Of a stretch of 57,746 nt of DNA, positions 17,349 through 53,857 are shown piece by piece (positions within the stretch are counted from its first letter, which is position 1; the number at the start of each line of letters is the position of its first letter). A program made the position numbers and the translations under genes. The notes under the pieces are model-generated. The model worked only from the letters and a program-made list of their open reading frames with translations. It was not told where the DNA came from and did no database searches. Source of the DNA: Folioceros fuciformis (lineage: Eukaryota); contig JBNGIO010006370.1 in the NCBI GenBank assembly GCA_049999805.1, positions 59,329-117,074 on the forward strand. The letters run 5' to 3'.

Positions 17349-20300
17349 TTAAAACATTTGCAGCATTCGAATCTGTAGGGATATATTCGAGATGCACCTG
17401 TCCAGAAGATACTGCTTCACGAATGAAATGATGTGCACTTCAATATGTTTTGTTCTCGCATGGAAGACTAGATTTTCAACCAGAGCCAAGGCACTTGTGC
17501 TATCACAGTGAATTGTAGTAGGTTGCACCTGCTCTTGACCCAAATTTTTTTAGTAGCCTTCGGAGCCATACGGCTTCCTTCGCTGCTTGTGTAAGAGCAT
17601 AATACTCTGATTCAGTCGAGGACAACGAAACTGTGGTTTGCTTTTTCGAAGACAAGGTTATGGCACCGCCTGCCAGAAGAAAAACATAAGCCGACACTGA
17701 CTTCCTGGAGTCAGAATTTGCTGCCCAGTCAGCATCACAGTACCCTATCAAAGTAAGTGGCTCTCCTTCATGATGTTGCTTTGTATAATGAATGTCGTGA
17801 CTACTTGTACCCTTCAGGTACCGTAGGATCTTTTTAACGGCAGACCAGTGTGTTCTGCCAGGTTGCTTAAGGAACTGTGAAGTAGTACTAACTGGCAACG
17901 CTATGTCTGGTCTCGTGTTATTGGAGCAGAAAATCAGCGAGCCAACGGCCTGTGCATAAGGTACGTCCTGCATTTCCTGTTTTTCTGAATCAGTCACTGG
18001 TGAATGTTCCAATGTGAGTTTACTACCTGCTTCCATAGGAGTTGCAGCAGGTTTAGCCTCCGTGAGCTCATACTTATGTAGCATATCAAAGATGTATTTT
18101 TCTTGATGGATAACCAGCGTGCCAAAAGCTAACACCACATAGCCTATCTCCTGTTGCAGGAAGTACACATTAGAATCTGCATCACTCTTCTTGAAGCTAA
18201 GGTCACGTAGAAACGCATCAAAGCACTGGTACCAAGCCCTTGGTGACTGTTTTAGACTGTAGATAGTTTTCAATAGTCTACAGACCCAGTCCTCACGTCC
18301 CTTAGCTTCATAACCTTTTGGCTGCTGCATATATATCTCTTCTTCCAGCTTACCATGCAAAAACGCAGTCTTCACATCCATTTGATGGATGAACAAGCTG
18401 AAAAATGCAGACACGGCACGTAGGGACTGTGCCTTAACAACGGGGGAGAAAGTGTCATTATAGTCGAGCCCTAGGACTTGAGAGAAACCCCTAGCCACAA
18501 GGCGAGCTTTGTACCTCGCTATAGTTCCGTCAGCCTTATACTTGAGTTTAAACACCCATTTGCTGCTGACAATCTTCCTCCCCTTAGGCGGGGGACAAAG
18601 CTCCCAAGTCTGATTGTGGATAAGAGAGTCATACTCGGAGGTAATAGCTGCAATCCAATGACGAGAGTCGGGACCTGTGACTACGTCCTGGTAGGATTGA
18701 GGTTCATAGCCAGGTTGGACAATGACATGGACAAATTCTCCCACTATCTCATTCGGGTTCACTCCCACTGCCCGAGGCACTCTCCTAGTACGCCAGTCCT
18801 CAGCCTCATAGGGTTGTTCAAGCCACTTGTCTCGTCCACGATGCACCCTTGCAGACCTTCTAGGCTGAGGAGGCATCACATACTCTACAGGGTCATCAAC
18901 AACAAGTTCAGAATCATCAGCTGGAGGGGATTCAGGCACACCATCGAAGGGATCATCTTCTTCAGCTGAATCTAAAGCAGCAGCAGGTGATCCAGGAGGA
19001 TCCAGTGGAGGAACAGGGAGAGAATCTGGTGGGAGAGCAGGAGGAGGGTCTGGTGGGAGAGCACCTAAATCTGGAGGATCTGTGACATCAGAAGCATCAA
19101 AAATAGGAAAGTCTACAATATCTGTAGGCTTTGACTCATCTGACTCAGTGTAAACAGGATGTTTAGGAGTGGGATAAGTATCTGCATCTGACAAATCAAC
19201 AGGGAGATCAGCAGGAGGTGTAAGGACAGAGCGCTCATCAAACGCCACAGTGCGAGCATGAGACACTTTACGAGAAACTAGATCAAACAGTTTATAACCA
19301 TGAACTCCAGGTGTGTAGCCGATAAACACATGTCTTTTTGACTTGAAAGAAAATTTCTTCCTCAGCTTGTCTGGTATATGTGCATAGGCTATACTACCAA
19401 AGACACGAAGGTGGGAAATATCAGGCTTTACTCCTGTCCACGCTTCAAAAGGAGTTACATGTGATAAGGAAGAAACAGCTGTCCTGTTCTGCAAGTAAGT
19501 AGCAACTTGAACAGCCTCTGCCCAGAAACGTATAGGTAGCCTCCCCTGAAAAAGTAGAGCCCTGGCAGCATCCTGTATTGTTCGATGTCTACGTTCTGCT
19601 CTTCCATTCGTATCAGAATGATAAGGAATAGTTAGCTGCCTTGTGATGCCATGTTCATGACATAAATCTTGAAAAGCCGAGGATAAGTATTCCTTTGCAT
19701 TATCAGATCTTAAACTCTTCAGCTTACGCCTTGTCTGACGTTCAGCATATGCTAGGTATCTTTTAACACTGTCAAACACATCACTTTTATGCTTCAGCAA
19801 CTCAGTGACTGTAAAGTGAGTTTTATCATCTTCAAAGACAACAAAATACTTGGCACCTCCCCAACTTGGTGTGGACATAGGGCCACAAATGTCCGAATGA
19901 ACCAAGTCTAACACTTCTATCTGTCTCCGTGGTTTGCCAGATCCAAAGTGAGATTTAAACTGTTTCCCATGAACACATGCAACACACAACTCCAAATCTG
20001 GTAAGTCAGAATCTGTAAAACCTGTAACCATCTTGTCCTTCAACAAACGTCTCATGGCTTTAATGTTTGGATGTCCAAGCCTGCAGTGCCATCTGAAGGC
20101 AGCGTATGATTTACTAGATGTAGACTCCACTACATGGGCTGATGATGGTTGGACATCTGAGACAAAATCTAGGATATACAAGTCATACAGGGGAGTACCA
20201 CAAGCTATGACATCTGAAGGTGAATTCAGCCTAGTGATAACGCACTCTAAACCTTCAAACAAAATGCTGTACAGACCTGTTTTTCCTAAGGCCATAGTAC

Positions 20301-21537
20301 TAACAAGATTTTTCTTGAGTGCAGGGACATGGAGTACATTCTCTAACTCCCATGTCTTCCCGTTCTTCAGAGTAACTATCACTGTACCTATACCTCTAAT
20401 AGGTATATGAGAATTATCTCCTAGAACAACAGCATGTTGACAAGGTAACTGCCTATAACTTACAAATGACTTCTTAGAAGAGCACATATGATTAGATGCA
20501 CCACTGTCTAAGAACCACTGATTTTTGTCCTTTGACACTGAGGACAGACAAGCCACAAGCAAACCAGGTGTTGTAGCTCTTGCCACATTTGATTCATGCT
20601 GCTTTCCTTTTCCAGCATCATCTCTTTGCTTAGCCCTGCAATCTCTAACCCAGTGACCTGGCTTGTGGCAGTAATTGCACACACCAAGCTTCTTCCCGGG
20701 CTGCTATGAGCTGGAGTTGGAATCAGGTCGGGACGCTTGTCCCCTGCCCCTTCCAAATCCTCCACGCCCACGCCCCCTTCCTCTGCCGCGACCTCTGCCG
20801 CGGCCAGACCAAAGTGCAGTATCACTTTGCTTATGGGATGAGCTCGATGAACCCTTGCCAGTCATATGCTTCCTGTTGGCTTCTCCTTGAAGCAGGGCTC
20901 CAACTAGCTTTTGTACAATCAAGGATGTCGTTGCTGGGGTTGTTGCGGTTGCTGGAGTAACAGTTGCTGTTGCTTGAATACTTGTGCTCCAAGTTTCATA
21001 GCTTGGAGGAAGGGCCAACAAGAACTGTACAGCTGCTCTCCTCTCATCAATGATGACTCCGCATGCTGCAAGTCGTGCTGTTGCTGCCCTGAACTTTGCA
21101 ACAAAGCTTTCAACTGACTCATTTTCTTTCATGCGCAAATTTTGCCAATGGTTGGTGGCGGCTCCCACTGAAATCAAATCCTTTGCTTCATAGGTATCAT
21201 TCAACAATGTCCAGACTTCATGTGCATGCTTGGCCATCTTGATATGAGGAATCATTTCTTGTGAAACTGAACCAACAAGAATTGTCTTTGCTTTTCTATC
21301 CTTATGACTCCATTCAAATGCATCCTTCTGCGTCCACAGTACAGGGTTCGTCCCCCCTGGTGTCATCATACCAGAGGGCTACCCGGCCACCCTTTTTGGA
21401 ATGGTGCCGTCAGTGACTTCCATCATAAGTCTTTCTTCAAGAATTGTACGAACCCTAAATGACCAAGCATCAAAATTGTGTGGAGTAAGGCGATCCTTCT
21501 CCTGTAGGCGATCATAGGTCTGGTCTGCTGTCGCCAT
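17349..21537 (-). pseudogene. copia gag-pol polyprotein, disrupted
   Basis: Gag ATG 21537; in-frame TAG at 21379-21381 and 20704-20706; zinc knuckle CNYCHKPGHWVRDC; protease WFLDSGAS; integrase WHCRLGH..C..C and VHSDICGP; RT RYKARLVARGF and QMDVKTAFLHG, with YVDD segment deleted near 18123; RNase H GYCDADWA with frameshifts near 17545. Confidence 0.9.
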
Positions 21538-24195: not shown

Positions 24196-27000
24196 AAGCC
24201 TCGTCAAGGGGAGACCCTTCCCCTCCGATGGCCATGCATAAAGCGGTGGATCCCTCTTGCGTGGGAGCTGGGAGACGTAGAGTCTCTACGACCAGGGAGG
24301 GATGACTTCAGACCGAGCCTACCAAACTAGATGGTACAATCCAAGGCCTTGGAGAAGGAACCCCTACCGCTTCTTCGATAGCGATTCCCTCCTCGGCGGA
24401 CTCATGGAGTACACGGAGTACCTCCATATGGTAGAATGTGAAGCTGTCATCCAATTATTGGATGGCATCTGTGACCATTCTTCGAAGGATTCGGTACTCT
24501 AGTCTCCATCGCGTCTTTGGCAAGTCCGTATGCTAAGCAGCACCAGCTCCCACATACCTCCAAAGGTCTTTCAAGGCCACGAAGGTGGCTCAAGCCTCCT
24601 GTGGAAGATGCAATGTGGTGATGGCCTCCACCTTCGTCTTGAGAAGTCCGACCTCGGTGTCTGCACTCCTGTTCTTGAGCTCTCCCACCTTTGTCCGAAG
24701 TTCCCCGTTTTTGTTTGAAGCTTCTTCATTCGCTTTATCAACCAATTGCTCATGTTGGTCCACAGTTCTTCGTGGTTTTGAAGGTTTTCTCGCATGAGGG
24801 TCATCACCGTCCGTAAGGTGCGAACTTCATGTAGGGCTGCCTTCTCCATCGCTTAGGAGTTGCACAATTTTACCCATAGATCCTCTACATGTCATACTAA
24901 CTCCGTTCCCTTCCGGGTAAGCTCCTTCTCTGTGGCGAGGGCTTAGTTCCTCTCTCTTTGATATCGGTCTCGGTCTGCCAGATGCTACTTGCAAGCATGT
25001 GTAGGTTCATTTCCCTCTTCAGCCACACCATCCTCTCCTCTACGTGGGCGACCTCCATGGCTATCCCTTGGTGCTCTGTTAGCTTGTTGCACTCGACCTC
25101 AGCTTCTTCGAGTTGTCGTCCTAGGGTCATAATCTGCTGCTCCCGCTCCAAGCTATGTGCTTCAAGCCCCGAGAGCTACTGCATGCAGTGGTCGTGCTCT
25201 TCTCGGAGCTTGCTAGACTCATCTCAAAGTTCCGAGGCGAGACTTGCAGCTCATTCCTTTAGAGCAGTTAACTACGCTACTAATTCCGTCATTTGCCACA
25301 ACAATGATTCGCCCTCCTAGGCAGCCACCTGCCTAAAAGACTAGGCCAAACCTTCAGCCATGGAGGCCACAATCCCTTGGGTTCCTACGTCGCTCCCTTT
25401 GAGGTGGCTCTAAAGTAAAAATGGTAGTCGGGGGGCAGTTGAGCCCTGCGAAATGACGTCCAAATAGCCCACCTCATTGCAATTAAATTCGTGATACCCC
25501 CTTTGATTAGGATGATAGACCACGGTAGGGTCCTCCATGGTGGGTTGTGCGGCGAGATCTGGCACAACTCCAACCAAGGGTGGACTAGGGGATTGTAGTC
25601 CTCTCCCCTTCTTCCTCCCATGTGGAGATGGCGGCCACTTTTCTACAAGTGTGCAACTAGCTGGACCAACTCCATCTAATCTACCTGCTCCCATTTCATG
25701 GGAGCACCTTGCAGTTTGAAACCAGTTATCCACAGGTTGTCCGGTTCAGGGCTGGTACGAGGAGGAGCTCTACAAGGGAATCCTCTTGGATGTTGTCATT
25801 GAGGGTTGGGCACTCCAACGCTTGGGTGGAGGGGCTTCCTTGGCCGGTGTAGTCGTTGTCTTCTGTTTCTTGGTTGAAGGAGGGTTGGCTGGAGAGATGG
25901 GGACGAAGGGAGGAGCCATCTGAGGGGACTCTGGTTTAGATGCTCTACTAGCCACCTCTTCTTCCGTGGTGTCGGACAGCGAGAGTGGTACTGGGCCATG
26001 GGCAGAGCTTTAGGAATTTGGGTGGCCAGTACCACGACCCTCTTCTTTCGAGTGGAAGTGAGGGCTGGAGTAGCACTAGGAGGGGATGCCCAAGTAGAAG
26101 GGGTGAGCCGAGCCATCTTCATCCTTTTCAAGTCCGTTAAGGCCTTGCAATGACCCTAGACATGGAAAAGGAAAGGAGATAACCCTGAGGTTGGTGGCTT
26201 CTCCTACCTTAACCTCCTAACATTGAATGACGATGAGGCGCGCCACTTCTCTACTTCACAAGTCTTTGATGTTGTGAATCATCTACCCGTTTGTGGTCTT
26301 GAATGATACGTTCATCACAAGTGCTTTGGCGACTTCCTTGACCAAAGCTTTATTCTACTGTGAATTCAAGTAAATCCCTCCACACTTCGAGGCTGGTCAT
26401 TTGTAGACTTCCCACATCATCTGGATGGCCCAAAGAAGAGGGTTGTCTCGAACCTTGATGAACTGCTTTCCCTGCATGCAACGCCAAATGGTCCGAGCTA
26501 ATTCCCAAACCGCTGCAATATACTTGGTGTTCTAGGGGAATAGGAACATACCCAACTCCCACTACTCCATGAGGTCACCAGCAGCCGCCACCCAAGGTGT
26601 GAAATTCGGATACCCTTGAGGTTGTATCTAATCCCTGTTGCTCCGCCAACCGTTGCTGGCTTTGAGAAACTAACCTGGTGCCATCTATGGGGAAGAAGTG
26701 GAGGAAGGAAGGATTGGAGAGAGTGAGGTGAGCAAGGGACTAGGAAACTTGATGCAACTAATGGAGTGGGGCTATCTCATGAAAAGACATAAGAGGAGTC
26801 GGAGTGGTGGTGGACTTCGAAATGGCGCCAAAGGAGGTGCGTCGGTAGCGTAATGTTAGAGTACCTTAGCGTAAGAGCTTACGTTGCTGCTATTGCAACC
26901 ATCCCGAGATGGTTACCCTCTTTTGTCCTCATGATGACAAGTACATCAGGCACTAATCCAATCGTGAGTTGCGTCATTCCGTTCGCCAACTAGCTCAGTT
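24196..27000 (-). mobile_element. Degraded TE-like sequence with coiled-coil and Pro/Lys-rich ORF remnants, truncating the host copia
   Basis: Fragmented minus-strand ORFs (24571-24849, 24897-25151, 25770-25955); abrupt junction with copia integrase at about 24195; no catalytic motif recognised. Confidence 0.35.
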
Positions 27001-28149
27001 TGGACCACTAAGTTTGGCATGCCTTTAACTTTGAGAATCTGCAAGTAATGACTAAAAAGAGATTATTCATACTTAAAAGAAAAGCATAATGAACCTAGGA
27101 CTCACGTTCGACAAAGGGTTCGTCGGAACACTAGGATAATACTCTGGTGTTTTGGTGCTCACAGCAAGCAATGTGAAGCTTTCGAGCAAGAGGCCGTAGG
27201 TAGTGTGACAAATATGATCCATTAGCACAACAACACAGCGCTCTAAGAAGAGAGCGCTATGTATAAGTTGAGAAGTTAACTTCACGAAGGGCCCAATCAT
27301 GGACATCAGCAGAGGATGCCACCACCTGCAAACAAGACATAGATTAGCAGACGTTTGGGTTAAGAAGGGAAGTCGAAGTCACATACACTGTGGCGGATCT
27401 AACAACCCTTCAAATAAGGTCACAAAAAAAATCAACTGTTTGGGCCAAGGAAGGAAGTCACAACGTCTGCGGTGATAGAAGTAACCCTTCCATGCTAGAA
27501 GTACGCGGACAAGGACCCCATTCGCAGCGATGAAAAGAAACCCAGTAGATGTCACAAAGAAGTCTGCATAAGCTGTCACAAGCATATTTGTATGTAGATA
27601 TAAGCTAGGGCTCTCCTTCTTGCCTCTTCATTACCTAAAATAGTTTCCCCCCAGCCCTCCCGTCCATATTTTTCCATATTGGAGGCCTAGCTTGAGCATG
27701 AGCCTCCGTGAGCCATTCCGAACCTCGCGAGAGACTACCAAACCCAAGACTTATGGCTAGTGCTTGCTCAGGATGCAAAGATGGTTCATTGGCCTTAAGA
27801 GGCCAAGGACAGCCCTATCAAGAGTAGATGACCTAGCCTGCAAGGGATGCCAATTGGTGAAACTTAATTGGGTAGCCTTAAAACTTGGCTAGACTTGAAG
27901 GATAGAGCAATGTGGTATGTAGGTACCATGGATCATTAGGATAGGAATGCATGACAAATTGGTTAAAATATTACTTATCACTGATCAACTCAACTACTTT
28001 GTATCTTTGTAGTAGCCAACAATAATGTGAGAGCTCTAGGTTAGAAGCAGCAACTATTTGCCACCGATGACTTTATGGAATTTGACCCATAGTTTCAATT
28101 TGCCTTTTCTAGAAGTAGAGTTACGAGTTTAAGAAGATAGTAAGGACAC

Positions 28150-28530
28150 AGTGATGGATAGATCTTGCATCAAACTATGTATTAGCGAGCAACATTAGAC
28201 AAAGTAGTAGAATGTAGCATAAGAGAAAGTATTGAAAAGTAGTATCAAACAAGGTATTAGAGAGTAGCATTAGTCCCTTAAGGTATTGGGCAGCAACATG
28301 AAACAAGGTACTAGAGAATAGCATTGGATATTGGACAAGGTATCATAGAGTAGCATTAAACCCTTAAGGTATTGAACAGCAACATCACACCAGCTATTAG
28401 AGAATAGCATCAAGGCATGGACAGTATTATTAGACAAGGTATTAGGAATAGTATTGGATATTAGACAAGGCATAAGAGAGTAACATCCAACATAGTATTA
28501 GATAGTAGTATCAAACAAGGTATTGGACAA
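28150..28530. repeat. Degenerate AT-rich tandem repeat, about 24-26-bp unit
   Basis: Recurrent AGTAGCATCAAACAAGGTATTAG/GG variants. Confidence 0.7.
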
Positions 28531-29007
28531 CAAGATCAATGTCATTTAAATGCAATCCAAGCACATACAACATCAAGGGAGGCTAGAGGCCCAAAAAAAA
28601 CGTCTCTCAGTACTAGGGGCCTTGAAGGACTTGAATGCTAAGAAGGCTTGTGTTGTGTGTATAGGAAGTCTTAAAATACACTAAACCCTTATTGATCATC
28701 TTCCACGTTCATCTAGCTCTAGGCTTGGCTTGTTGGTTCCTATATTTTGTACTCGCCTACATGCCCACACACTAGTTTTTGCATAGGAGATGGCCCAGGG
28801 TCGACAACACTTTTTCTGAAAGCTCCCAACAATATCGTTCCAAAAATAAGCTAGAGACGTTGTAATGAAAGGGCGCAGCTGAGCGACTACTGACCAAGCA
28901 TGATCCCGTTTCCTAAAACGCAAGGAGCTCTTAGAAAGGAGATGTTGTGCGAGCGAGGCTAAAGCTACGAGGGAACCAGCGATGGAGAAAAGCGACGACA
29001 TCTCTTC

Positions 29008-31587
29008 TTGCCTTCTTCGAGATGGGTTGGGTTTTCATGGCTATTTCACATGAGATGTAACCTGCGATTTACAGACACGCGTGTCGTGGTGATGAAGCAC
29101 CAAGGATGCACGTTTCTGCAACAGCCCAATGTTTTGTCCGCCAGCCAGGCCCGGGCTATCGATAGCAGGTATGTGGGCAGCCGCATGTGCCAGTTGGGGG
29201 CAACGGCAGGAACGTCCTCAGTGGCTCGGGGAGCAGCAGAGGCTGGGCAGGGGCAGAAGGAGCGGCAGGAGGTTTTGTGGCAAGACCTCTTCTCAGATCC
29301 GTGGCAGTGGTGGGACTACCGGGCGGATGCCAAGAGCCCACAGTATCCGGACTTCAGGCACAAGACCTCGAAGCAGGCACTGTGGCTCAACAATTTGTAC
29401 AAGCCTGAGTGGGTGGATGAGGAGCTGGCCAGGAGGGATGTTGGGTTGTCCAAATTCACATCCAGCATGGTACAGACCTTGAGCAGACACTGCGAGCAGG
29501 GGACGGTGGGCGAGGCTGTGGACATTTTGGAGCTCTTGGTGCAGAGAGGATGCTCTGTAAGCCTGTCCGTTTTCCGGTTGGTTTTGAAAAAATGCGGGAC
29601 TGCGAGGGATGTGAGCGTGGGGAAGCGGGTGCATGCGCTGGCTGTTACAAGTGGGTACGAGTCTAGCGCATTCCTGGCCAACCATATCATCTGTATGTAC
29701 GCTTGCCACGGGGAATTAGAGGAAGCTGTGCAGGTGTTCAGCAAGGTGCTTGTTCCAGATGCTTACATGTGGTCGTCCATGATCATGGCTTTTGGGCGAC
29801 AGGGAAAACCAGCGGAAGCTATCAGATTCTACCTGCGGATGCGAGAATCGGGTGTGGAGCCTGACAACCATATATTTGTGGCAGTTCTCAAGGCTTGTGC
29901 CAATGCGGCGGATTTGGTTTCGGGCAAGCAGGTGCATGCTGATATCGTGACCAGTGGTGTGCGGCCCAATGTCTTCGTTGGTAACAGCCTGGTGAACATG
30001 TATGCAAAATGCGGGAGCCTGGACGATGCACGTGAAGTGTTTGACGCCTTGGAAACTAGGGATTCGGTGACATGGAATGCAATCATCACCGGGTATACAC
30101 AGCAGGGGATGGGTCGGGAAGCTCTGGCACTGTATTCGAGGATGCTGGAGGAGGGCATTGCTCCAGCTGACCAAGCCACATTTGTGTGTCTCCTGAAAGC
30201 GTGTGCAAGTGCCGGGGCTTTACACGAGGGTAGGCAGCTTCATGAATTGATTCAAAAGAGGAGACTGGAAGGTGATCTTGTAGTTGGGAGCTGCCTGATA
30301 GACTTGTATTCTAAGTGGGGGGGTGTAGAGGACGCTCGCAAAGTGTTTGACGGATTGTGCAGCAAAGATGTGGTGGCGTGGACTGCCATGATCACAGGGT
30401 ATGCACAGCAGGGAATGGCTGAGGAAGCCCTGTGCCTTTACAAGAGTATGCTGCAGGAGGGCATCACTTCACCTAATCGTGTCACATTTCTCTCTCTCCT
30501 TCACGCATGTGCCACTGTGGGCGCTGCGCAGCAGGGAATGCAGCTTCATGCTCAGATCCGTGAAAGAGGTCTGGAAACGGATGTGCTGGTGGGCAACTGC
30601 CTGGTGGACATGTATGCAAAATGTGGAAGGTTGGAGGCTGCACGATCCGTCTTTGATGCCTTGCCCGTCAGGGATGTGGTGGCATGGAGCGCTCTGCTCA
30701 ATGGCTATGCTGAGCACAGTGATTGCCACATGGCATTCCAGTGTTTCAGAGAGATGCTTCAGCAAGGCGTGGAGCCTAATGGGACCACCTTCAGTAGTCT
30801 TCTCGTGGCATGTAGTCATGCAGGGCTCGTCCTTGAAGGCCAGCAATTCTTCCGGATGATGGTGGATGACTACTGCATTGTCCCCGATGACCATCACTAC
30901 AACTGCGTGGTTGATCTCCTTGGGCGAGCAGGCCGTTTGGATGAGGCAGAACATATTCTGCTCACCATGCCGCTGGATTGTCATGTAGTGGGATGGACTT
31001 CCCTGCTAAGTGCCTGCAAAAGCTACGGTGATGTGGAACGTGGAGAGCGATGCTTCCAACGCCTGGTAGAAGAAGAACCTGAAGTAGCAACTCCCTACGT
31101 TCTCTTAGGTAGCATGTATGCAAATGCTGCCAGGTGGGAAGACTTAGATCACGTAGAGAGCCTTAGAAAGGGGGCAGGTGCTTGGAAGAAGCCAGCCAAG
31201 GCTTGCATCGAGGTGAAGAACAAGGTGCATGAGTTCACAGTGGGTGACGAAAGGTCTGATGTTGCATCTATGCTGAGGGATGTGAGTACTAAATTGAAAT
31301 TGGGCGGCCATGTGCCAGAAACATGGTTGGTCCCCAAGGTAGCCTCTGAGCAGGAGAAGGAAGACGCTTTGTGTGGACATGCCGAGAAACTGGCTCTGGC
31401 ATATGGTCTGCTCAACACTCCAGATGGTACAACTCTGCTTGTAACTAAAAACCTGCGCATGTGCCATGACTGCCACAGCAGCACCAAGATTATGTCACGT
31501 GTGGAGCATCGAGAAATCGTAGTAAGAGATGTACACCGAGTACATCGCTTTCTGAATGGTGCTTGTTCTTGTGGGGATCGGCACTAA
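29008..31587 (+). CDS. PLS-PPR protein with DYW:KP domain ending GDRH and an N-terminal OSB/PDF-like motif; candidate organellar RNA editing factor
   Basis: PLS triplets; WKKPAKACIEV; LCGHAEKLALAYGL; KNLRMCHDCH; HRFLNGACSCGDRH*; intronless; true start probably ATG 29050 or 29092. Confidence 0.93.
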   Translation: MPSSRWVGFSWLFHMRCNLRFTDTRVVVMKHQGCTFLQQPNVLSASQARAIDSRYVGSRMCQLGATAGTSSVARGAAEAGQGQKERQEVLWQDLFSDPWQWWDYRADAKSPQYPDFRHKTSKQALWLNNLYKPEWVDEELARRDVGLSKFTSSMVQTLSRHCEQGTVGEAVDILELLVQRGCSVSLSVFRLVLKKCGTARDVSVGKRVHALAVTSGYESSAFLANHIICMYACHGELEEAVQVFSKVLVPDAYMWSSMIMAFGRQGKPAEAIRFYLRMRESGVEPDNHIFVAVLKACANAADLVSGKQVHADIVTSGVRPNVFVGNSLVNMYAKCGSLDDAREVFDALETRDSVTWNAIITGYTQQGMGREALALYSRMLEEGIAPADQATFVCLLKACASAGALHEGRQLHELIQKRRLEGDLVVGSCLIDLYSKWGGVEDARKVFDGLCSKDVVAWTAMITGYAQQGMAEEALCLYKSMLQEGITSPNRVTFLSLLHACATVGAAQQGMQLHAQIRERGLETDVLVGNCLVDMYAKCGRLEAARSVFDALPVRDVVAWSALLNGYAEHSDCHMAFQCFREMLQQGVEPNGTTFSSLLVACSHAGLVLEGQQFFRMMVDDYCIVPDDHHYNCVVDLLGRAGRLDEAEHILLTMPLDCHVVGWTSLLSACKSYGDVERGERCFQRLVEEEPEVATPYVLLGSMYANAARWEDLDHVESLRKGAGAWKKPAKACIEVKNKVHEFTVGDERSDVASMLRDVSTKLKLGGHVPETWLVPKVASEQEKEDALCGHAEKLALAYGLLNTPDGTTLLVTKNLRMCHDCHSSTKIMSRVEHREIVVRDVHRVHRFLNGACSCGDRH

Positions 31588-32149
31588 TGCAAGTCAAATA
31601 CCGTCTCCTAAATTCCGTCTTCACAAGTTTAATGCATTAGCCATGTTACGCCCGTCGCTGCAGGGGATCTTTCCTCTTGCGATCTTCGCGGCCATTCTTT
31701 GTTTCTTGCCAAATTCATGTGGATGCCGACAATACGGCTCACACTAATCTGTTGGATCCAATACCGTCCCTAATCCGAAAACTCCGTCTTTGACAGAGGC
31801 CAGTGCTCGTTCTTTATAAGAGCGGAACATGAGGTTCTTGGGAATGAAGAATCGGTCGTGGAGAAGATGAGGAGCTCATAGGAAACTGAGTCGTGGGTCC
31901 ATAGGGAACTGAGTCGTGGTTGCGGATTCATTAGGAACAAGTGGTTGTGACGCGGATGAAGAGAAGAAGTCCATAGGGAACTTAGTCGTGCCGACGGATG
32001 ACAGGAAGAAGTCTTTAGTCCATGCTTTTTGAGTGCCACGTCTAAAACAAAGCGGGAAGTCTTCAAAGAGTTTGATATACATTATTGGAAAAAAAATGGA
32101 AAATCGAATAGGGCTCGCGCCCAAAGATGTTGTTGGAAATGACAAGAGG

Positions 32150-33430
32150 ACTAGGTGCCAAAGAAGGCCTACCAACGCAAAGGCTAATGCCCTTTGCATA
32201 ACAATGGACAAGCGTTGGCAACGCCATTTGCAGAGAGACAGGAGTGGCATTGGCCAATGCCCTTTCCGTAATTACGGAGTGACATTGGCCAGGCAATGCC
32301 CTTTTGCATAGCCACGAAGTGGCATTGGCCAGCCAATGTCCTTTGTAGAGCGATAGAGACACATTGGCCAATGCCCTTTGCAAATGTATTTTCAAAAAAA
32401 TGCCACCATCGATGAAAGAGGAAAAGCCCATTTGCAATGCGACAAAGAGGCGTTGGCAACACCCTTTGCAAAGCGACGAAAATGCGTTGGCAAAAAAAAT
32501 AGGCCTACCAACAATAGGTGCCAAAGAAGCTACTTGATCTTCACTTATCATTGTTGTAGAGAGTGCAAAGGCCAATGCCCTTTGCAGAGCGATGGAAAGG
32601 GCTTGGCCTATGCCATTTGTAGAGCGACGCAGAGGGATTGGCCAACGCCCATTGCAGAATGATGCAAAGAGGTTGACACTATTTGCAAAGCAACATGAAA
32701 GTGTTGGCCAGCGCCCTTGCAAATGCATTTTCAAAAAAGACGACCATCGAGGAAAGAGGAAAACCCCATTTGCAATGTGTCAAAGAGGTGTTGGCCAAAG
32801 CCCTTTGCAAAGTGACGAAAATGCGTTGGCCAAAAAAATAGGCCTATCAACAATAAGTGCCTAAGAAGCTACTTGACCTACACTTGTTGATGTTGTAGAG
32901 AGTGCAAAGGCTAGTGCCCTTTGCAGAGCGATAGAAAGGGGTTGGCCAACACCCTTTGTAGAGTGAGGTAGAGGGGTTGGCTAATGCCCTTTTCAGAGTG
33001 ATGTAGAGGTGTTGGCTAACGCCATTTGCAGAATGATGCGCAGGGATTGACCAATGCCCTTTGTAGAATGACGTAGAGACGTGTTAACCAAAAAATCAGG
33101 CCTACCCATAATAGGAGCCAAAGAAGCCGCTTGACGTGTAGTTGTTGTTGTTCTAGAGAGCACAAAGGCCAATACTCATTGGGGAGCAATAGAGGTGCAT
33201 TGGCCAACGTCCTTTGTAGAGCGATGGAGATGCATTGGCCAATGTCCCTTGTAGAGTAATGGAGATGCATTAGCCAATGTCCTTTGTAGAGTAATGGAGA
33301 TGCATTGGCCAATATCCCTGCAATACACTACAATGAAGATGCATTGGCCTACTCCCTTTGCACAACAACTGAGACGCGTTGGTCAATGCCCTTTGCACAG
33401 TGATGAAGACACATTGGTCAGCAACCTTCG
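32150..33430. repeat. Degenerate minisatellite of about 30-32-bp units with higher-order blocks
   Basis: Many copies of core TTGGCCAA(T/C)GCCCTTTG(C/T)AGAG; 32360-32600 resembles 32700-32940 and 33050-33220. Confidence 0.8.
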
Positions 33431-34292
33431 TAAATGTATTGTGGAGAAAAAGCCACCAGCGAGGAAAGAGAAAAGACTCATCCTTATGACTATGATATAC
33501 TTTGCACACTCCTTGATGAGCCATGAAATGACATTGCTCATGGCCTCATGTTTAAAGAGAATCATACGTAGAGAATACTCATGGACTTCCATAGTCACAC
33601 AATCCTCCATAGAAAGATTTACTTGTCATATAGGAGAATACTTTTGGACTTTCACAATCACACAATCCTCAATTGAAAGATCTGCAAAGGAGAATACTTA
33701 TGGACTTTCACCATCACACAATCCTCCCTCGTCCATGAGGGTGGTTGATGAGCTCTGTCATACATGGACAACCCCATGTGCTTGTGCTTGTGCTTGATGA
33801 TCACTGTAATTGACAAACCCATGTGCTCGCAAATTAAATCCCTAGTGAGATCCATGACAAGCACGTAAATAACACAAACATGTTCCCCTTGTGAATAAAA
33901 GGTATGACAATTATCTGAACAACTTTAATAATAGATAAACTTCTCACCTCTCGAATAAAGATCCAGATACATGAGATGCCATTTGATAGCAGGAAACTTT
34001 GTAACCTTGAAGGCTAGTACTTTGTGTATAGTTTCTATTTCAATAAAAGAATTTCGGACACAAAGTACATGACATATTTTGCATACCAAATATTACGTTA
34101 TGTCTAATGTTGAGTTGTGGAAGGGGAAGAGGTGGCCTTGCGCCGCGAAGCCGAGAGTCCCGCCGTGTTCCCGACGAGGTGACTGGGGAGCAGGGGGCAG
34201 AGCGAGACAGAGAGAGAAAGAGAGAGCGGGGGGCATGCAAGTGAAGCAAACTGGAGGCGCATGCTGAAGAAGCAGGGTCAGAGAGGGTCGGC

Positions 34293-37200
34293 ATGGTGGG
34301 AGCCGCTAATCAGGCGCTCGGAGACGAAGCGCCGTCCTCGTTCCAGCTCCGACTGCAGCGTCATCAGCAGCAGCAGCAACAACACCAACCGCAGCAGCAC
34401 ATGGATGGCGGCGATCGCTCAAGCTACGGCACCGGCGCCGGCGCTGGTGGCAAGGCCAGGTCCAGCGCGGCGCCCAACCGGCGCAAGACGCCCTACGATC
34501 GTCCCTCCCAAGGCCGCCATGCCTCTGCTAGCCCGCACGCCGCCTCGCGAATCAATGGAGCGGCTCCAGGTCTGCCGTCGTCATCCTCCTGGCTCGGCGC
34601 AGGTCTCGTCGGCACCGCCTCCAAGTTCTTGACCTCCAGCGCCTCCTACCTCTTCTCTTCCGTTTTCGGGCGCCGCGAGAATTCCGGCACTCCGTTGGCT
34701 CTGCCCCAAGGCGGCGACACTACTCCAGGTACTGCTCCGAGAGCGTTGATTCACGACCCGCCTTCCTTTTTCCCGTCTGCCCGTCTGCGCAGTTGCCTGG
34801 TCTTGCTGCGGGAATGGCTAGGTCAACGACCCGGCGCCTCGTTCAGCCGTGACCTAGGTCGGGGGTCTTGGTCTCTGCGGCGGGGCAGCTGTGGCGTGCT
34901 GCGGGGAGTCTGGCTGGCCCTCTTCGACACAGTCTGCTGACTGGGTTGTGTCCCTGGCAAGACTGCACTCTGACTGAGGGGGCTTTGTTGTTATGTGACA
35001 GTCGAGCGGGAAGACAATGGCGAACACGTTGTACAAGTCTCGCAATCCAAATCTATGGTAGGTCGTCGTTGCTTGTTCGTTATGTTAGTCTCAGTTTTGG
35101 TTCTGGAGCTGCGACCTAGGTTACGCCGATTTGGAGGCGCGGCGTGGATGCTTGTCCATCCTCAGCAAGAATGGTGGTCATCCTGTCCCTGTCCCCTTTC
35201 AGGAGATCGGCGACGGGCAGGGAAGACCGTCACACCAGCCGCACATCGCGGAAACATCAAGGACGCCTGAATCGTTATGGAGAAAACCCACACTTACCAG
35301 GTGAGCTGGCGTCCATTCCCCAGGCAGTCCAATGTAGTTGCTTTAGGTCTCGTGCGAGTAAGTCGTGAGCTTGTGGGTTAGGTCTCCACCCTTCGTCCCA
35401 GCTCTCATGCCTGGGGTTTTTTTTTTTTTCTTTCCCAATGGACCGACAGCGAGGAGTATCTCCACCTGTCTCGATTACTCCAGTCAAGGATTGTTGACAA
35501 TGGGGCTGGTGAGGATCACGTGAGTGACGGCCATGAGATGAAGGGCACGGCAGATGGGTCTGAAAATCTGCTCGAATACGGGACACCAGTAGGGACCATG
35601 AGATGGAGGGATGAGCCCTTGAATCATGTTAATGACTCTAGGCAAAATGGCAGTCCGCGTAATGGAGCTGTGCAACCTTTCTTGACTACGCCTGGTGTTC
35701 GTGAGGTGAGCTTTCTGCTCTCTGTCTTTTATTTTATAAACTTGAGAATGAAGTCAAGATTAGAGTCCGTACATCTAATAAGCAATGTACTCGATTGTCT
35801 TCTAGACACTAAATCCTGTCATGTACCTTCCCGCAGTTAAATAATGGATCTGATTCGCCAGTCGATATTGCAAGGGCTTTCATGGGAGACCGTGCAGCAA
35901 GAGCACCTGGCTCTTTGTCACCCGCACAAGCACCGCAATTGGCTGTGGCAAACTCCTCTGATCCAGGCCCCTCTCCCTTACCTGTGAGCACCAGTGTCGT
36001 TGTTAAGAAGTCAGCGACAAATGAGTTTTCTCGTAATATATTCCAGACACCTGCAACTTGGTCTTCCAGACCTGTTGCGGGGCTGTATGGTACTCCATAT
36101 AGCAGGCCAAATCATTTGACTGCCGCAAGAGAGGTAATGTGCTTGCTTTCATATAGTTTGGAGTTGATGTGATAAATGATTGTACCTGTGTGTTTTATCA
36201 TTAATTTGTTTGGGTGCAGCTTCCTACAAGACCATCACCAGATGGCTCAGCGCCTTCAAGGTGGACTCCTATCAGGGCTCCCCTTACTAGTGGCTCGCAG
36301 GTAAGATGTGAATGGCTCTCTGTGTTGTATCATGATTTCTATCTCGGAACTGCTACATATTTATGTTGTATTCGGCAATGGCTTGCATTTGACACTCCAG
36401 AGTTTAAAACGGAGGAGCAATGCTCTGGATGATGGCTGGGCGTCAGTGGGTCCCATCAGAAGAACTAGGCGAAAATGGACTGTGGCACCCTCTGCAACTG
36501 GCTCTGGTCTGTTGAGATCTTTCGGGGACCCGTCAGATGGCGATGAAGGTGAAGCAAGACCGTTGAAGCTGGATTCGGACGATAGGAGCAGCCTTTTTGG
36601 GGAAAGCTCTGGTAGTAGGGGGAAGACTATTGCTGGCAGTAGTGGTTTGAAAAAAATAGACGATCGCAAGGGTGTGTCCAGTGCAGTAGTACCTGCTCAA
36701 TCCACTGAGACCGCTCGTAAAATATTGGAGACGTTGGATCGAATGGTACCATCCCCTGAGCAGAAGAAGTTGGATGAAGAGCTAGCCTGTGTCCGACGAA
36801 AGCCGCCTGGTCGTTTGACTGATGATATGCTTAATGATCGGGCCAGGAGGAGCATGCAGGATCCTGGAGATTTAGATTTAGGGGATCCAGAACTCCAGAA
36901 AGCTGGAGGTTATTTTTCAGGACAAGCGGCACGGAAATCTACACTGAGTGCTGCGAACGGGAAAGGTAAAGGTAAAGCGATTTTGCCTAGTGGGCCTCCT
37001 TCAATGCCTGACGAGGGAGCTGCAAGGGTGGTATCGTTCACGTCTGGTCCTCATGCTGCATCAGACTCTCCAGAAGGCTCTTCAAGGAATTTTAGGTCTT
37101 CTGTCCTGATTGATCCGTCTACTCCTACGGAGCAGGGTGGCTTTCGGATGAGCATTGACTCTGATGTAAGTACTGAATTCTTGAATGCTCTTCATTTCAA

Positions 37201-40200
37201 ACCTGGTTTCGGTTCTTTATGAATTGAAGAATCACAGTCTTCATGTAAATTTGTTAGGTCTGGCTTGGTAATTGTTTGGTTTGGCTTTGCAAATATGGTG
37301 GAGTAGATCATTTACATACTTGATCAGTTGCAGGGGTCAGACTCAGATCGTGAAGGGGCCAGGAATGTGCAAAAGGCAGCTGGAGGTGGAACTGTTCCTT
37401 CAGGTTCTGTTTCCGGTCTGGGAAGGCGATTTGGCGAGACAACGTCATTTGCATTGGATGGCTTGAAAAGTTCCAGCCCCTCTCAGATCCCCACCAGTTC
37501 TGGAATGTCTGGGGCACCTGGTTCCAGTTTGGTCAGAGTTGCAGCTCCGTTCCCCAGTGGAGCAGCGGATTTCCAGAACCCTCAGAGCCCTGATTCGTCC
37601 AAGGGCAAGAGCTCCGGTAGTTTCTCTTTTCAGACCACGCCAATCTTAAATTCTAATCCATACGAGCCCCCTCCAACTCCTAAACCAATCCCATCACCAG
37701 CCATGAATGGGGGAGCAGCAGCAAGCACTATTTCAGAGCTGCCTCTTTTCCAATTCGGTACTGCTACTGCTGAGAAGCCGAGGGTGGTGTTTTCAGCGAT
37801 TCCTGGACCACTTGGACAGCCAGGAGCAGTGGGTGATAACAACAAGCTAAGTCAAACCTTATTCAGGTTGGTTTCTGGATTCACTGCAAGAGTTTTCACT
37901 GTTGTCACGCGAATGATCTAGGTGGAAGTTAATTGCAGACAAGGGGTGTCAAGGGTGTGGTTTTCCTGATGGGTGTCTTGCTTTGTTTTGTGTGCAGCAC
38001 TGCCACATCTAGTGCTTTTCCTTCTCTCGGCCAAGGTCCTTTTGAATCCGTTACGCAAAGTGCAGGTTCGGTCGATACCAGTGTTAGGGCCATTGAAGTT
38101 TCCAATAGCGCAGCCGTTTCTGCACCAACTTTGCAGCAGGGTTCCGCCCCTGTCAGTGACCAAAATGCAACATCTGTACCTGAAAGCAGTCTTGCAACCG
38201 GGGTGTTTGGGGCCTCTAGTGTCAGCACAGGCAGCTTTTGGCTGGGGACCGCATCCTTTGGTGGTGCAAGTTCATCTGGATTAGGGTTAGGAACCAGCAC
38301 GTCAACTATGTTTCAAGGGTTTGGCAAGGATGTGACTTGTTCCTCAGCTGCCACTGTAAGCGCTTTCGGTTCTGCTTCGGGAGTTGCCACAACTCCCATA
38401 GTGCAAAGCTCTGGGTCTGGTTTGTCTCTGTTGAAGCCACCAATGGCATATGCTGCCGGCTCTTCAGGATCAGGGATGCTGGGTAGTTCGTTTCCATTCA
38501 CTGCAAGCTCAACGACCACATCGGCCAGCACACCTTTGTTTGGCGATGCAGTGCAACCGATTACAGCAGAAAAACTTGCCGATGTCAAGGACAGCCAACC
38601 TGTTGTCAGGTTTGTGTGAGTGGCATGCACAATTTGTGGCAACTGTCAGGATAACTGTCATGAAGCTCTTTTACTTTGAGGACTTGTTTAGGGCCATGCT
38701 TTTATGTGCTTTGGAGTTCATTGTTGTTTCGGTGCCCTAACATTGTTGTTTACTTTTGCAGCGGTGTAGGATCAACTGCACTTACTTTCTCTGTATCAGC
38801 CGTTTCGAAGACGGACGCTGGAGAAGCTAAGGCTAGTATGCCCCCTTTAAGTATGTCAGCAGGAGCTTCATCATCAGCAGTACTTCCCCTGAGTTCAACA
38901 ATGAGCAGCTTTCCTGTGGCTGCTAGTGCGTCACCTTTATTCGGAGGTGCCCCATCGGCTGGTGGGTTTGGAGCCCTTAATGCTACCTCTGGCAGTTTTG
39001 GCCAGGGATCGTCGGGTTTTGATTCTAGCACCTCAGTGTTTGGGTCGGGGGGCACGTACACACCAAGCTCTCAAGCCGTGAAAAAGGATATGGCAACTGC
39101 AGCACCATCTACGGCATCAGTTTTTCCCCCTGCAGCACCTTCTATGACATCAGCTTTAGCCCCTGCAGCACCATCTACGGCCTCAGCGTTTGCTCCTGCA
39201 GCACCATCTACGGCATCTCCAGCACCAAACTCTCTCTTTAGTGAGAGTGAACCCAAGACACAAGCACCATTTTCTTTCGGGTCATCTGGGGCAGGATCAT
39301 CTGCTAGCGCATATACTTTCACAGGCAAAGCTACAGCTGCAAACACAGGATTTCCTTCTACTGTGAAGTCCCCTGAGGCAACGGGAACGAGCTCACAGCC
39401 TGCCTTTGGGATGGTGAATACGAGCCCAGCACTTGTTGCCAGTTCTGTTCACGGAGTTTTGTCGGCTGATACAGGTGGTGAGCATACTAGCATGGAAGAG
39501 ATGGCCGAAGAACCTTCTGTCCCTGTATCTGGTCCTGTGTCTATCTTCCAGCAGTCTTCGATGCCTTCCTCTGGTTTTATGTTTGGCCAGCAGGGTACAC
39601 CTTCGGCGCAGCCGCCTCTGTTTGGGCAGCCACCTGCTCCCACAGGTCAAGCTCCTCAATTTGGATCATCGGCATCCTCGGGACAAGGTGCTCTCTTCAG
39701 GTCATCGTCAGCATCTGCAGGACAAACTCCTGTGTTTGGGCAAGTAGCAGGTTCCACAGGACAAGGTCCTGTATTTGGGCAGGCATCGGCTTCCGCAGGA
39801 CAACCTCCTGTGTTTGGGCAACCACCGGCTTCCACTGGACAAGCTCCAGTTTTTGGGCAACCATCAGCTTCCTCTGGACAGACTACTGTATTTGGGCAGA
39901 CTTCCGCTGCGCCCGGGCAAACCCCATTTGGCCAGCCTACTACTCTGACGGGACAAACTCCTTTTGGCCAGACTACTGCTCCTACTGGGCAAAGTCTCTT
40001 TGGCCAAGCTAATGCTCCTACTGGACAACTTCTGTTTGGCCAGGCGCCTGCTCCCATTGGACAAACTCCGTTTGGCAGTGCTCCTCCGGTGCAGCCCTCC
40101 GTGTTTGGCCTGCCAAATTCTTCAGGTCAACCTTCTGTATTTGGTCAGCCCAGTACTTCGGTATTTAGCCAGCCAAGTGCTCTTAGTGGACAGTCAGAAG

Positions 40201-40358
40201 TCTTCTCTTTCTCGGCCCAGTCCAGTTCTTTCGAAGCAGGGGCGCAAAATCCTTTTTCAGCTGGTTTCTCGATGGGAGCTGGTGGCCCGGAGCAGAGGCA
40301 GGGTCGCAAGTTTGTTAAGGCTAGTAAGAGGATCGGTGGTCAAAGGAGAGGCAGGTGA
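34293..40358 (+). CDS. NUP1: Nuclear-basket FG nucleoporin NUP1/NUP136-like (NUP153 counterpart), about 10 exons
   Basis: GAGGK..RRKTPYDRP, LSRLLQSR, SPVDIARAFMG, SVGPIRRTR, STETARKILETLD, many PVFGQ/TPFGQ repeats, basic tail GRKFVKASKR; approximate exons 34293(or 34401)-34728, 35002-35057, 35203-35300, 35450-35705, 35837-36133, 36220-36300, 36401-37165, 37334-37866, 37998-38609, 38762-40358. Confidence 0.82.
39575..40150 (+). repeat. Coding FG-repeat array with 36-39-nt units
   Basis: GQxPxFGQ repeated more than 12 times in the last exon. Confidence 0.85.
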
Positions 40359-42695: not shown

Positions 42696-45600
42696 ATGGG
42701 CGTAGTATGGCATCCGGATCCGGTATGGGCCCAGCAAATTGGTGGCTGTACAGGGATTCTAGCAGGGGCTCCCGCTCATCTCACCGGGGGAAGTGAACAG
42801 GTGCTAAACAACCAAGCTTCCAGGTGGAGGAGTGAAAGGAATCCAACACGTCCCAGAAGATGGAGGACTGGAGATGGATTTTCCAGCGATGGTGGTGGTG
42901 ACCAGGGCGAGGAGCTTTTATTTCGACGATTGTTTCTGGAACCTGCCATGTGGTGGGATAACAGGCGAGGAAGGAAGTGTTCCCGTTCCCCTCACTTTCG
43001 GCGTAAGGGGTCCGGCGAGGTCCTCTGGTTAGACAACATGGAGAAGCCAGCTTTGGTGGATGAGCAGCTTGTTTCTTTGGACGTGCAGGTTGTTCATGGT
43101 GTCTCTGCTCCGCAATCGAGCTTTTCGGATAATCCTGAGACGGGCAGGCGTGCAGGATCGAAAATGTTGAGCACGTTATGTCAGCAGGGGAGGCTCAACG
43201 AGGCCGTGGGAGCTCTGGAAGCTCTGGTGCAGACAGATTTCCCTGTTTCTCCTTCACTCTTTTATAGTGTTATCAAACTGTGTACAGTCAAGAGGGACAT
43301 GGTTGTGGGGCGACGAGTTCATAATCTCACTGTAAGACTCGGGTACGAGTCTAACACGTACTTGGGGAACCATATCGTGCGCATGTATGCCTGTGGAGAT
43401 AGGCTACAGGAGGCCATGGATGTGTTCACCAGGGTGGAGAGACCAGATGCCTTCATGTGGTTTTCCATCATCTCGGCACATGCTAAACATGGGAAGCCTA
43501 ATGAGGCCATACGACTATATCATGAGATGCGGGGCTCAGGTGTGAAAGCAAACGCTCATGTCTTTGTAGCAGTCCTTCAAGCATGTGCATTTGCTGTGGA
43601 CTTAGAAGCTGGCAGACACGTGCACTACGATGTGCTTCATAGCGGCCTTCCGCCTAACGTGTTTGTTGGCAATTGCCTGGTGGACATGTATGCAAAGTGT
43701 GGGGAGCTGGAAGATGCACGCAGAGTCTTTGACCGCATGGCCACAAAGGATGTGGTGACATGGACGTCCCTGATAGCTGGGTATGCAAAGCATGGGCTCG
43801 GCCAGGAGGCGCTTCTTCTGTATGAACAAATGGAGCAGGAGGGCCTGATTGTGGCGAACCATGTGACTTTTTCCTGCCTCCTGAGGGCCTGTGCAATCGC
43901 CGGGGCTTTGCAGAAGGGCAGGGAGCTGCACTTGCAGATCGTGGAAAGAGGACAGCTCAATAACATACTAGTAGGTAACAGTCTGGTGGACATGTATGCA
44001 AAATGCGGGGAATTGGGAGACGCACGCAGGGTGTTCGACAACTTGGCTAGAAAGGATGTGGTGACATGGACAGCCTTAATAGCTGGGTATGCAAATCATG
44101 GGCTTGGGCTAGAGGCGCTTGCTCTGTATGGACGTATGGAGCAAGAGGGTTTGATTGTGGCTGACCATGTTACTTTTGCTTGTCTTCTGAAGGCCTGTGC
44201 AAGCTTAGGTGCCTTACAGAAGGGCAGGCAGCTGCATTCACTCATTGTGGAAAGGGGACAGCTGGATAATGTATTGGTGGGCAATACCTTGGTGGACATG
44301 TATGCGAAATGTGGCGAAATGAAAGAGGCTCGTAGGGTTTTTGACAACATGCTATCAAAAAATGTGGTGACGTGGACGTCCCTAATTGCTGGGTATGCGC
44401 AGCAAGGGCTTGCACAAGAGGCCCTTTTGCTGTATGGACTTATGGAGCACGAAGGCGTGATTGTGGGTGACGAGGTTACTTTTGCTTGCCTTCTGAAGGC
44501 CTGCGCGAGTGCTGGTGCCTTGCAGAAAGGCAGGCAGCTGCACTCACAGATTGTGGAAAGAGGCCAGTTGGACAACATCGTTCTGGCCAACTGCCTGGTG
44601 GACATGTATGGAAAATGTGGTGAACTGAAAACTGCGCGCCAAGTTTTTGACAGCTTGACAACGAAAAATGTGGTGACTTGGAATGCTCTAATTGCAGGGT
44701 ATGCAAACCATGGGCTTGCTCAAGAGGCGCTTGCTCTGCATGAACAAATGGAGAATGGGGGCCTGATTGTTGCTGATCATGTTACTTTCACTTGCCTTCT
44801 GAAGGCCTGTGCAAGTGCTGGTGCCTTACAGAAGGGCAGGGAGCTGCACTCACAGATTGTGGAGAGGGGTCAGCTAGATAACCTGGTGGTGGGCAATTGC
44901 CTTGTGGACATGTATGCAAAATGTGGTGAATTGGAGGATGCTCGCAGGGTATTTGAGAGCTTAAGCACGAAGGACGTGGTAACATGGACGGCCCTCATTG
45001 CTGGGTATTCACAGCAAGGTCTCGGGCAAGAGGCGCTTGCCCTGTATGGACAAATGGAACAGGAGGGCCTGATTGTGGCAGACCATGTTACGTTTGCTTG
45101 CCTTCTGCAGGCGTGTGCAAATGCTGGTGCCCTACAGAAGGGCAGGCAATTGCACTCACAGATAGTAGAAAGAGGAGAGCTAGATAAAAAACTTATGGGT
45201 GCTTGCCTAGTGGATATGTATGCGAAGTGTGGCGAGCTAGAAGATGCACGCAGAGTCTTTGAAAGCTTGGTTGCAAAGGATGTGGTGACATGGACGGCCC
45301 TGATTGGCGGGTTTGGTGCTTGTGATGAAGGTCATGACGCACTAGCCTGTTTTGAGGAGATGTTAGTCGCTGGTGTTGAGCCCGATGAAGCCACTTTTAC
45401 TTGTGTTCTAGTAGCATGCAGTCATGAGGGACTGGTGAATGAGGGTCGCCAACACTTCGATTCCATGGTCGAACGACATGGCATCACACCCAGTGTTGAG
45501 CACTACAACTGCATGATTGATCTTCTTGGGCGTGCAGGCCACTTAGATGAGGCTGAGACCATGCTATTATCGTGCGAGGTCCAAAACAATCCCGTGGGAT

Positions 45601-53043: not shown

Positions 53044-53857
53044 AATGATGAGGAGGAACTCAGAATTTTGCTCTAGTCCCCTGTAACACACGATTTGTAC
53101 TTCGGTCCTTCAATGTAGGTTCATGACTCGTTACCGGATGGGACCCAGGTAATCGCCATGTCTGCAAAGGCCCGGCTCGTTATTGCCGGGCTGCCCAGAT
53201 TTGCCTGCAAGTTGTGAGTTCGTAAGAGATTGCCCGAGCCATCACCAACAGTCCTATCGTTGTCCATCTCCACGATGATCCCAGGACCGAAAACGAACTT
53301 CCTGACCGCGGCGATTGGTACGTTCAGACAGCCAAGCAATAGGATCAGAGGTTGATGTGACTGGTTCACTTCAGGCAGTCAGGTTAGTCAAGTCCGATAT
53401 TGCTGAGTTGTTAGGTTTCAGACTGCCAGGCAATTTGATGGTGATGCGATTGTTATGAATGAAAGAAAGTTCGGGGTTGGTGTCGGAGGCAAGTCATCCG
53501 TGTCCGGACAGGCGGACAGCCTATGAGAAAGTGTCCGCTGGTAGCTGCTGGGATTGTGGAGGGCTTTGCCAGGCAAGCGCCAGGGTTAGCTGGCTGCCAG
53601 CAAGTCCTGCACTCTCCCTGCTCGACCAGCTTCGTTCCCGCCCCTTGAGGCCCTTAAGGCACCATGGCGGCCTCCCCGAATTCCATGCACAGCTGCTCGC
53701 AGTTCTTCGCTTCCATGCCCTCTCCTTGCTTTTATCACATCTCCTGCTACATTACTTCAGCAACCGCGTCTTTCGCTCCTCTCGCATTCGGCACCTGCCA
53801 TACCAGAGCTGCTCCTCCTCCTTCGCCGGCGGCAAGTCTCACACATTTCGGGAAGAA

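Follow-up and report, generated by a model that had tools for sequence, protein, structure and literature searches.

In the OSB proteins of plants, the PDF motif is the part that binds single-stranded DNA (ssDNA), and in OSB1 it is sufficient for this whereas the OB fold is not, as far as the available text of two studies goes (PMC6963530, PMC6451138). According to the accessible part of a 2026 survey of the family, which kept only proteins having both an OB fold and a PDF motif, OSBs carry one to five copies of the motif at the C-terminus; PPR proteins are never mentioned in that part (PMC13393729). PPR-DYW:KP proteins, for their part, are to date the sole enzymes with a known link to U-to-C RNA editing. 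In the accessible text of another study, that link comes from designed proteins without a natural N-terminus (PMC9478123). The gene described here joins these modules. It lies in a 57,746-nucleotide stretch of Folioceros fuciformis contig JBNGIO010006370.1, called the window below, to which all coordinates refer. The gene occupies positions 29050-31587 of the plus strand (stop codon included), is intron-free, and encodes a protein of 845 residues in which its open reading frame (ORF) and Pfam matches delineate a PDF-PPR(PLS)-E-DYW:KP layout of the DRH variant; it is referred to by its start coordinate, as are two paralogs, 42696 and 50416. The PDF-PPR combination is a real, conserved, and recurrent architecture of two known modules that is undescribed as far as the literature searched shows.

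Homology of the N-terminal motif was assessed with a hidden Markov model (HMM) of 58 positions derived solely from 21 copies of the motif in 15 angiosperm proteins, all named OSB1, OSB2, or OSB3, with E-values calculated at Z=50,000. The original prediction had proposed such a model as its own test, and the 29050 protein matches it significantly, with 61.7 bits and an E-value of 1.1e-16. The 50416 and 42696 proteins score 63.7 bits (E 2.6e-17) and 44.1 bits (E 3.5e-11), respectively, and in six-frame translation the entire window yields exactly three sites with the same model, at 29275-29433, 42918-43088, and 50659-50829. The pattern W..P..WWD.R..K...PDF.HK...LW...P.WV...L, spanning ∼50 residues, is followed by the 29050 copy save for K21. 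A phmmer search with a 74-residue stretch against 1.84 billion cluster representatives returns 640 matches at E<=1e-3, of which 180 reach E<=1e-10 and 20 reach E<=1e-30; the best 150 of the 640 are the set used for all protein-level counts. The direct matches include database proteins P0037, named OSB3 (3.3e-24), and P0126, named OSB2-like (3.2e-13). A word-based homolog search with residues 60-135 found nothing among 16 shorter and 87 near-length candidates, although the exhaustive phmmer search did find relatives, and the ESM Atlas gave no usable match for residues 66-139. Likewise, no solved structure of the PDF motif was found by sequence in the PDB, where a single query gave only a chance match (E 1.4) and a profile reached only the PPR part of 9kfx. 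At the level of sequence, homology of the 29050 motif to the OSB PDF motif is established.

The majority of the best 150 matches are proteins of 250-500 residues with two to four C-terminal motif copies. An N-terminal SSB fold is recognized by Pfam in six of ten sampled matches at E<=0.01, with P0043 and P0068 above the curated cut-off, and at E<=1e-3 in 27 of another 131; P0043 comes from a fern, and its relatives bear the names OSB1, OSB2, or OSB3 in their sources. The 29050 protein shares with OSBs the homologous motif of ∼50 residues (profile E 1e-16), with 15 of its 16 most conserved columns intact, but it differs in the rest. Pfam reports no SSB match anywhere in its 845 residues and no match of any kind at E<=1 in residues 1-157; beyond the motif the protein is a PPR-E-DYW editing factor, with matches to PPR families, to E_motif (2.9e-10, residues 659-720), and to DYW_deaminase (6.5e-34, residues 753-843). 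Its motif is moreover single and N-terminal, unlike the one to five C-terminal copies of OSBs given in the accessible part of the survey (PMC13393729). With no SSB-like OB fold, and with PPR repeats after the motif, the 29050 protein is not a member of the OSB family. Two other contexts of the motif were seen among the database proteins. P0002, P0003, and P0005 contain 9-13 tandem PDF motifs, well above the number reported for OSBs, and P0055, of 1526 residues, has three PDF motifs (residues 192-395) directly before a kinesin motor domain (458-765), which may represent a non-organellar use of the motif or a fused gene model.

The first in-frame ATG of the gene is at 29050, with an in-frame stop 31 codons upstream. 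The N-terminal 75 residues (29050-29274, plus strand), which cannot be aligned among the three paralogs, presumably form an organellar presequence; seven Arg and Lys residues and two Asp and Glu residues are found among the first 50, and the protein appears to be organelle-targeted. The PDF motif follows at residues 76-128 (29275-29433, plus strand; 60.8-bit domain with the HMM, 56 bits in the six-frame scan). Translation of 29275-29430, the interval first assigned to the motif, gives the 51 residues read originally and one additional Ala, or 52 residues in all, residues 76-127 of the ORF. According to the paralog alignment, the motif ends ∼13 residues ahead of the first PPR-like repeat. The PLS-type PPR array with its E motifs covers residues ∼141-712 (29470-31185, plus strand; Pfam PPR, PPR_2, PPR_1, PPR_3, and E_motif), boundaries that are approximate in that the start is taken from the paralog alignment and the end is set by the KKPAKA box at residue 713. 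A DYW:KP-type deaminase-like domain, supported by the DYW_deaminase match and by alignment to a canonical DYW protein, completes the protein at residues 713-845 (31186-31584, plus strand) and ends in DRH. The placement of the motif between the N-terminus and the first PPR, as originally predicted, is thus borne out: a nonconserved N-terminus blank in Pfam is followed by the motif and then by the array. An artefactual fusion in the gene model was considered and is ruled out, since one continuous ORF spans both modules in three separate window genes. Contigs of sequencing run X1, which is not on record as RNA, are colinear with the window over 28859-31761 with 0 differences and no gaps, and they also cover 31870-32038; the intervals 27000-28858 and 32039-33500 have no X1 cover, which is neutral as to transcription.

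The C-termini of the three window PDF-PPR proteins were aligned to database protein P0093, a canonical DYW protein with HSE that ends in DYW. The PG box is replaced, with KKPAKACIEV or KKPAVAGIEV in the window proteins against KEPGRTWIEV in P0093, a form that goes by the label KPAxA. A gap of four residues lies opposite GHPH of P0093, such that xHP is absent; HAE (HAEK) stands where P0093 has HSE, and CxDCH is intact as CHDCH or CSDCH. The C-terminal triplets are DRH in 29050, GRP in 42696, and NRP, of the GRP type, in 50416, endings that suggest a hornwort source. All three proteins keep the Lys of TKNLRMC, at position 88 when counted from 133 residues before the end. These features agree with the available text of published descriptions, according to which the PG box differs in the KP type, KP proteins have a conserved Ala in HAE at a position taken by Ser in the PG type, xHP is missing from most KP proteins, and hornwort KP proteins occur as DRH and GRP variants (PMC9478123), with Lys88 an essential active-site residue (PMC11845758). 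Judged by their residues, the three window proteins show every mark by which PPR-DYW:KP factors are recognized. The solved chains nearest to the C-terminal 245 residues are 9kfx and 9kfy (E 1.7e-91), followed by the DYW domains 7w86 (1.8e-30) and 7o4e (6.2e-30); the synthetic PPR-DYW protein 9kfx differs in being of the PG type, with an EPG box, HSE, and four additional residues. By its type, the 29050 gene product is a nuclear-encoded PPR editing factor with a DYW:KP domain of the DRH subtype found in hornworts. It shares with the DRH and GRP proteins already known from hornworts, which are candidate U-to-C editing factors, the PLS array, the E motifs, KPA in place of PG, HAE, CxDCH, and the absence of the xHP insert, and differs in what precedes the array: the literature, in the parts available, describes KP proteins from the PPR array onward and mentions no N-terminal PDF motif. 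The PDF-PLS-E-DYW:KP architecture that had been proposed for this gene therefore finds agreement from Pfam, from the OSB-motif HMM (E 1e-16), and from the alignment to the distinguishing features of the KP type.

The motif is retained and constrained in PPR-linked proteins. Among the three paralogs the N-termini are not alignable and the linker after the motif is variable, whereas the motif itself aligns well. The 25 PPR-linked copies conserve the same key HMM columns as the 460 other copies, namely W4, P11, W14, D16, R18, K21, P27, D28, F29, K32, L38, W39, P44, W46, V47, and L51. PPR-linked copies score 59-75 bits against the OSB profile. Over 51 motif codons, the ratio of nonsynonymous to synonymous substitution rates (dN/dS, by NG86) is 0.28 for 42696 and 50416 (dS 0.72) and 0.15 for 29050 and 50416, the latter at a dS of 2.4, which is near saturation; dS is saturated for 29050 and 42696. 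Contigs from runs of two other organisms run unbroken from the motif into the downstream repeats at ∼92% identity, X2 over 29302-29613 with 24 differences and X7 over 29264-30014 with 59. Among the X2 differences listed, 17 of the 24, two fall inside the motif and both are synonymous by reading, a sample too incomplete to carry weight.

The association of the motif with PPR arrays extends beyond this window. A PPR array is also present in 17 of the 150 best motif representatives by blastp against the 29050 array (1e-5) and in 18 by phmmer with the motif masked (1e-3), and Pfam confirms PPR repeats in seven of nine selected long matches and in nine of the other 131. Several short fragments classed as 'other' contain the motif and then the apparent start of a PPR repeat, and the PPR-linked counts are therefore lower bounds. 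The PPR-linked proteins have one to three N-terminal copies of the motif, with three in P0009 and two in each of P0117, P0129, and P0051. The fusion is thus a recurrent gene-family trait and not a singleton. In a FastTree analysis of 485 motif copies over 55 columns, the PPR-linked copies are scattered, with 11 changes of state, an alignment too short to tell one fusion event from several; one clade of 13 copies (support 89) holds 11 PPR-linked copies, among them all three from the window. The original prediction had tied the motif to a DYW:KP editing enzyme. That architecture is real, but it is not special to DYW:KP, because the motif also stands ahead of a canonical DYW:PG protein (P0093) and ahead of PPR arrays without a recognizable E or DYW domain (P0009, P0104, P0144). 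The motif therefore accompanies PPR arrays in general and not U-to-C chemistry in particular; that it also occurs on PPR proteins lacking a deaminase domain speaks for a role in PPR function generally.

A full-text literature search, whose coverage excluded the original OSB paper and two key hornwort PPR papers, returned no description of a PDF motif on a PPR protein. The fusion had been put forward as new, and it is undescribed as far as the literature was searched, although an earlier mention in the OSB or hornwort PPR source papers is possible. In the available text of a 2026 kingdom-wide survey of editing factors that includes 22 hornwort genomes, fusions of PPR with MORF, RRM, and OZ are reported and neither the word PDF nor the word OSB occurs (PMC13386178); the accessible part of a moss PPR overview lists only RRM, LAGLIDADG, SMR, NYN, CBS, and SAP as accessory domains (PMC9459714). 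The hornwort genome paper does not mention OSB (PMC7027989), and the single paper found in which OSB and PPR both occur as whole words has no bearing on a PDF-PPR combination (PMC8297867). The 29050 protein resembles PPR proteins with RRM, SMR, LAGLIDADG, NYN, CBS, SAP, or MORF in pairing the array with a second nucleic-acid-related module, but the PDF motif itself appears in neither list as far as their accessible text goes (PMC9459714, PMC13386178). Pfam contains no model of the motif, so surveys of the PPR and OSB families by domain would miss such fusions.

As to function, tethering to nucleoids, unfolding of RNA, and action on ssDNA had been suggested in the original prediction as possible roles. 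We give an even chance to the motif persisting in the mature protein as an accessory that binds single-stranded nucleic acid irrespective of sequence. In PPR arrays bound to RNA, the N-terminal repeats face the 5′ side of the target. The motif would stay in the mature protein after the presequence and, because it ends so close before the first repeat and the N-terminus of the array faces 5′, it would grip RNA just 5′ of the PPR footprint, without sequence preference. Such a grip might increase the affinity or the on-rate, or hold the site in single-stranded form, a role that would be comparable to that of the separate helper proteins of seed plants. Hornwort editosomes are modeled as mainly PPR and ORRM proteins in the accessible part of the 2026 survey (PMC13386178). 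Several observations weigh against an accessory grip on RNA. Recombinant OSB1 and OSB2 prefer ssDNA over double-stranded DNA or RNA, according to the available text of a review (PMC4166229), so RNA binding by the 29050 copy cannot be assumed, and the preference favors a DNA ligand. The 29050 copy has Ala at column 21, where 98% of the other copies have Lys, and with a net charge of -3 it lies below all others of the 25 PPR-linked copies (median +2). Three conserved positions are missing from the 42696 paralog, and the motif may on that account be dispensable in some copies.

The main rival to an accessory RNA-binding role takes the ssDNA preference of OSB1 and OSB2 at face value: the motif would bind single-stranded organellar DNA, in transcription bubbles, R-loops, or replication and recombination intermediates, and so concentrate PPR factors at nucleoids, where RNA processing and editing would take place on nascent transcripts. 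This tethering is possible, if doubtful. The preference for ssDNA over RNA (PMC4166229) and the assignment of ssDNA binding to the PDF motif within OSBs (PMC6963530, PMC6451138), both taken from the accessible parts of these sources, point toward it, and the occurrence of the motif on PPR proteins without an editing domain fits a general role in localization. However, a single copy may bind weakly, given that OSB3, which has an additional copy, requires longer ssDNA according to the text available (PMC6451138), and the acidity of the 29050 copy and its missing K21 count against binding of DNA as well. A broader claim, that the motif anchors a whole class of PPR proteins, U-to-C factors included, to nucleoid ssDNA, and in its boldest form that the deaminase-like domain also reaches ssDNA, is speculative and unlikely; if it were true, hornworts, and probably other seedless plants, would carry out RNA editing and processing in physical linkage with transcription or with the replication and recombination of DNA. 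The narrower proposal that ssDNA becomes a substrate of the DYW:KP enzyme by virtue of the motif, in place of RNA or besides it, draws its sole support from the same preference of OSB proteins (PMC4166229, in the part available) and is exceedingly improbable: the motif also occurs on PPR proteins without any deaminase domain, PPR arrays are generally known as readers of RNA, and no result here points to DNA editing.

Neither of the remaining explanations calls for nucleic-acid binding. The motif could recruit a protein partner or pair PPR proteins with one another, and the very different contexts in which it is found, such as the three copies with a kinesin motor in P0055 and the arrays of 9-13 copies in P0002 and P0003, lend this some appeal, with many of its invariant residues being aromatic or proline and thus compatible with either role. 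Such an interaction or oligomerization module is nevertheless distinctly unlikely, in that the sole biochemistry reported for the motif in the accessible literature is ssDNA binding and no result here points to a partner. Alternatively, the motif might have no function in the mature protein, being an evolutionary relic or being cut off with the presequence. Its position near the N-terminus (residues 76-128) and the degraded state of one paralog copy (44 bits against 62-64) would agree with this, but the OSB-like column conservation in 25 PPR-linked copies, the 59-75 bits of PPR-linked copies against the OSB profile, and dN/dS of 0.15-0.28 make it very unlikely. Presequences do not keep such conserved patterns.

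On the reading of the motif as an accessory binder, a conserved additional module predicted to bind nucleic acid is a concrete candidate, open to testing, for the means by which hornwort factors locate or hold their substrates. The fusions make the PDF motif a portable module where it had been the hallmark of a single DNA-maintenance family: it accompanies PPR arrays and, in P0055, a kinesin motor. This portability reopens the question of whether it binds RNA as well as ssDNA. The architecture, with the function proposed for it, bears on organelle RNA editing and on synthetic PPR editors.

Both GRP-type paralogs, likewise of PDF-PPR-E-DYW:KP layout, lie 13-21 kb downstream of the 29050 gene and have the PDF motif in the same place. 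The first encodes 1166 residues ending in GRP (42696-46196, plus strand; DYW_deaminase 1.4e-32 and alignment to the canonical DYW protein), and its weaker PDF motif at 42918-43088 (plus strand), with W4>F, D28>H, and W46>L, scores 39 bits in the six-frame scan. The second encodes 875 residues ending in NRP (50416-53043, plus strand; DYW_deaminase 6.6e-34 and the same alignment), with its PDF motif at 50659-50829 (plus strand; 58.2 bits in the six-frame scan). The 1166-residue paralog has additional PLS blocks relative to the 875-residue paralog, and the two flank a GDSL-lipase gene (47325-49634) whose product has a long repeated tail rich in Pro, Gln, and His. A fourth PPR gene, at 1323-3563 on the minus strand, encodes 746 residues with an E motif and a PG-type box, QPGQSWW, and ends soon after, without a DYW domain or PDF motif. 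A relic PDF motif in this gene was considered and is ruled out, as the OSB-motif HMM gives no match to its product up to E 1000. In this sample of four window genes, the motif is present in all three of the KP type and absent from the one PG-type, E-only PPR gene.

The rest of the window contains unrelated features. Degenerate tandem repeats with a 35-bp period and 75-88% matches occupy 32253-33317, just downstream of the 29050 gene, and give rise to spurious ORFs on both strands. A Copia-type retrotransposon is represented on the minus strand by a pol ORF with integrase and RVT_2 (17503-20487) and, upstream of it, a gag-like ORF (20704-21369). On the plus strand, an ORF at 11333-12166 has a PRT_C domain (6.5e-16), and ORFs at 36332-40358 that are rich in Ser, Gly, Ala, and Phe-Gly, with repeated 'FGQ' units and no Pfam match, recall FG-repeat proteins. 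An assembly gap of 100 N lies at 55274-55373, and a Phi_1/EXORDIUM-like gene (1.7e-80) is found at 53459-54889 on the plus strand.

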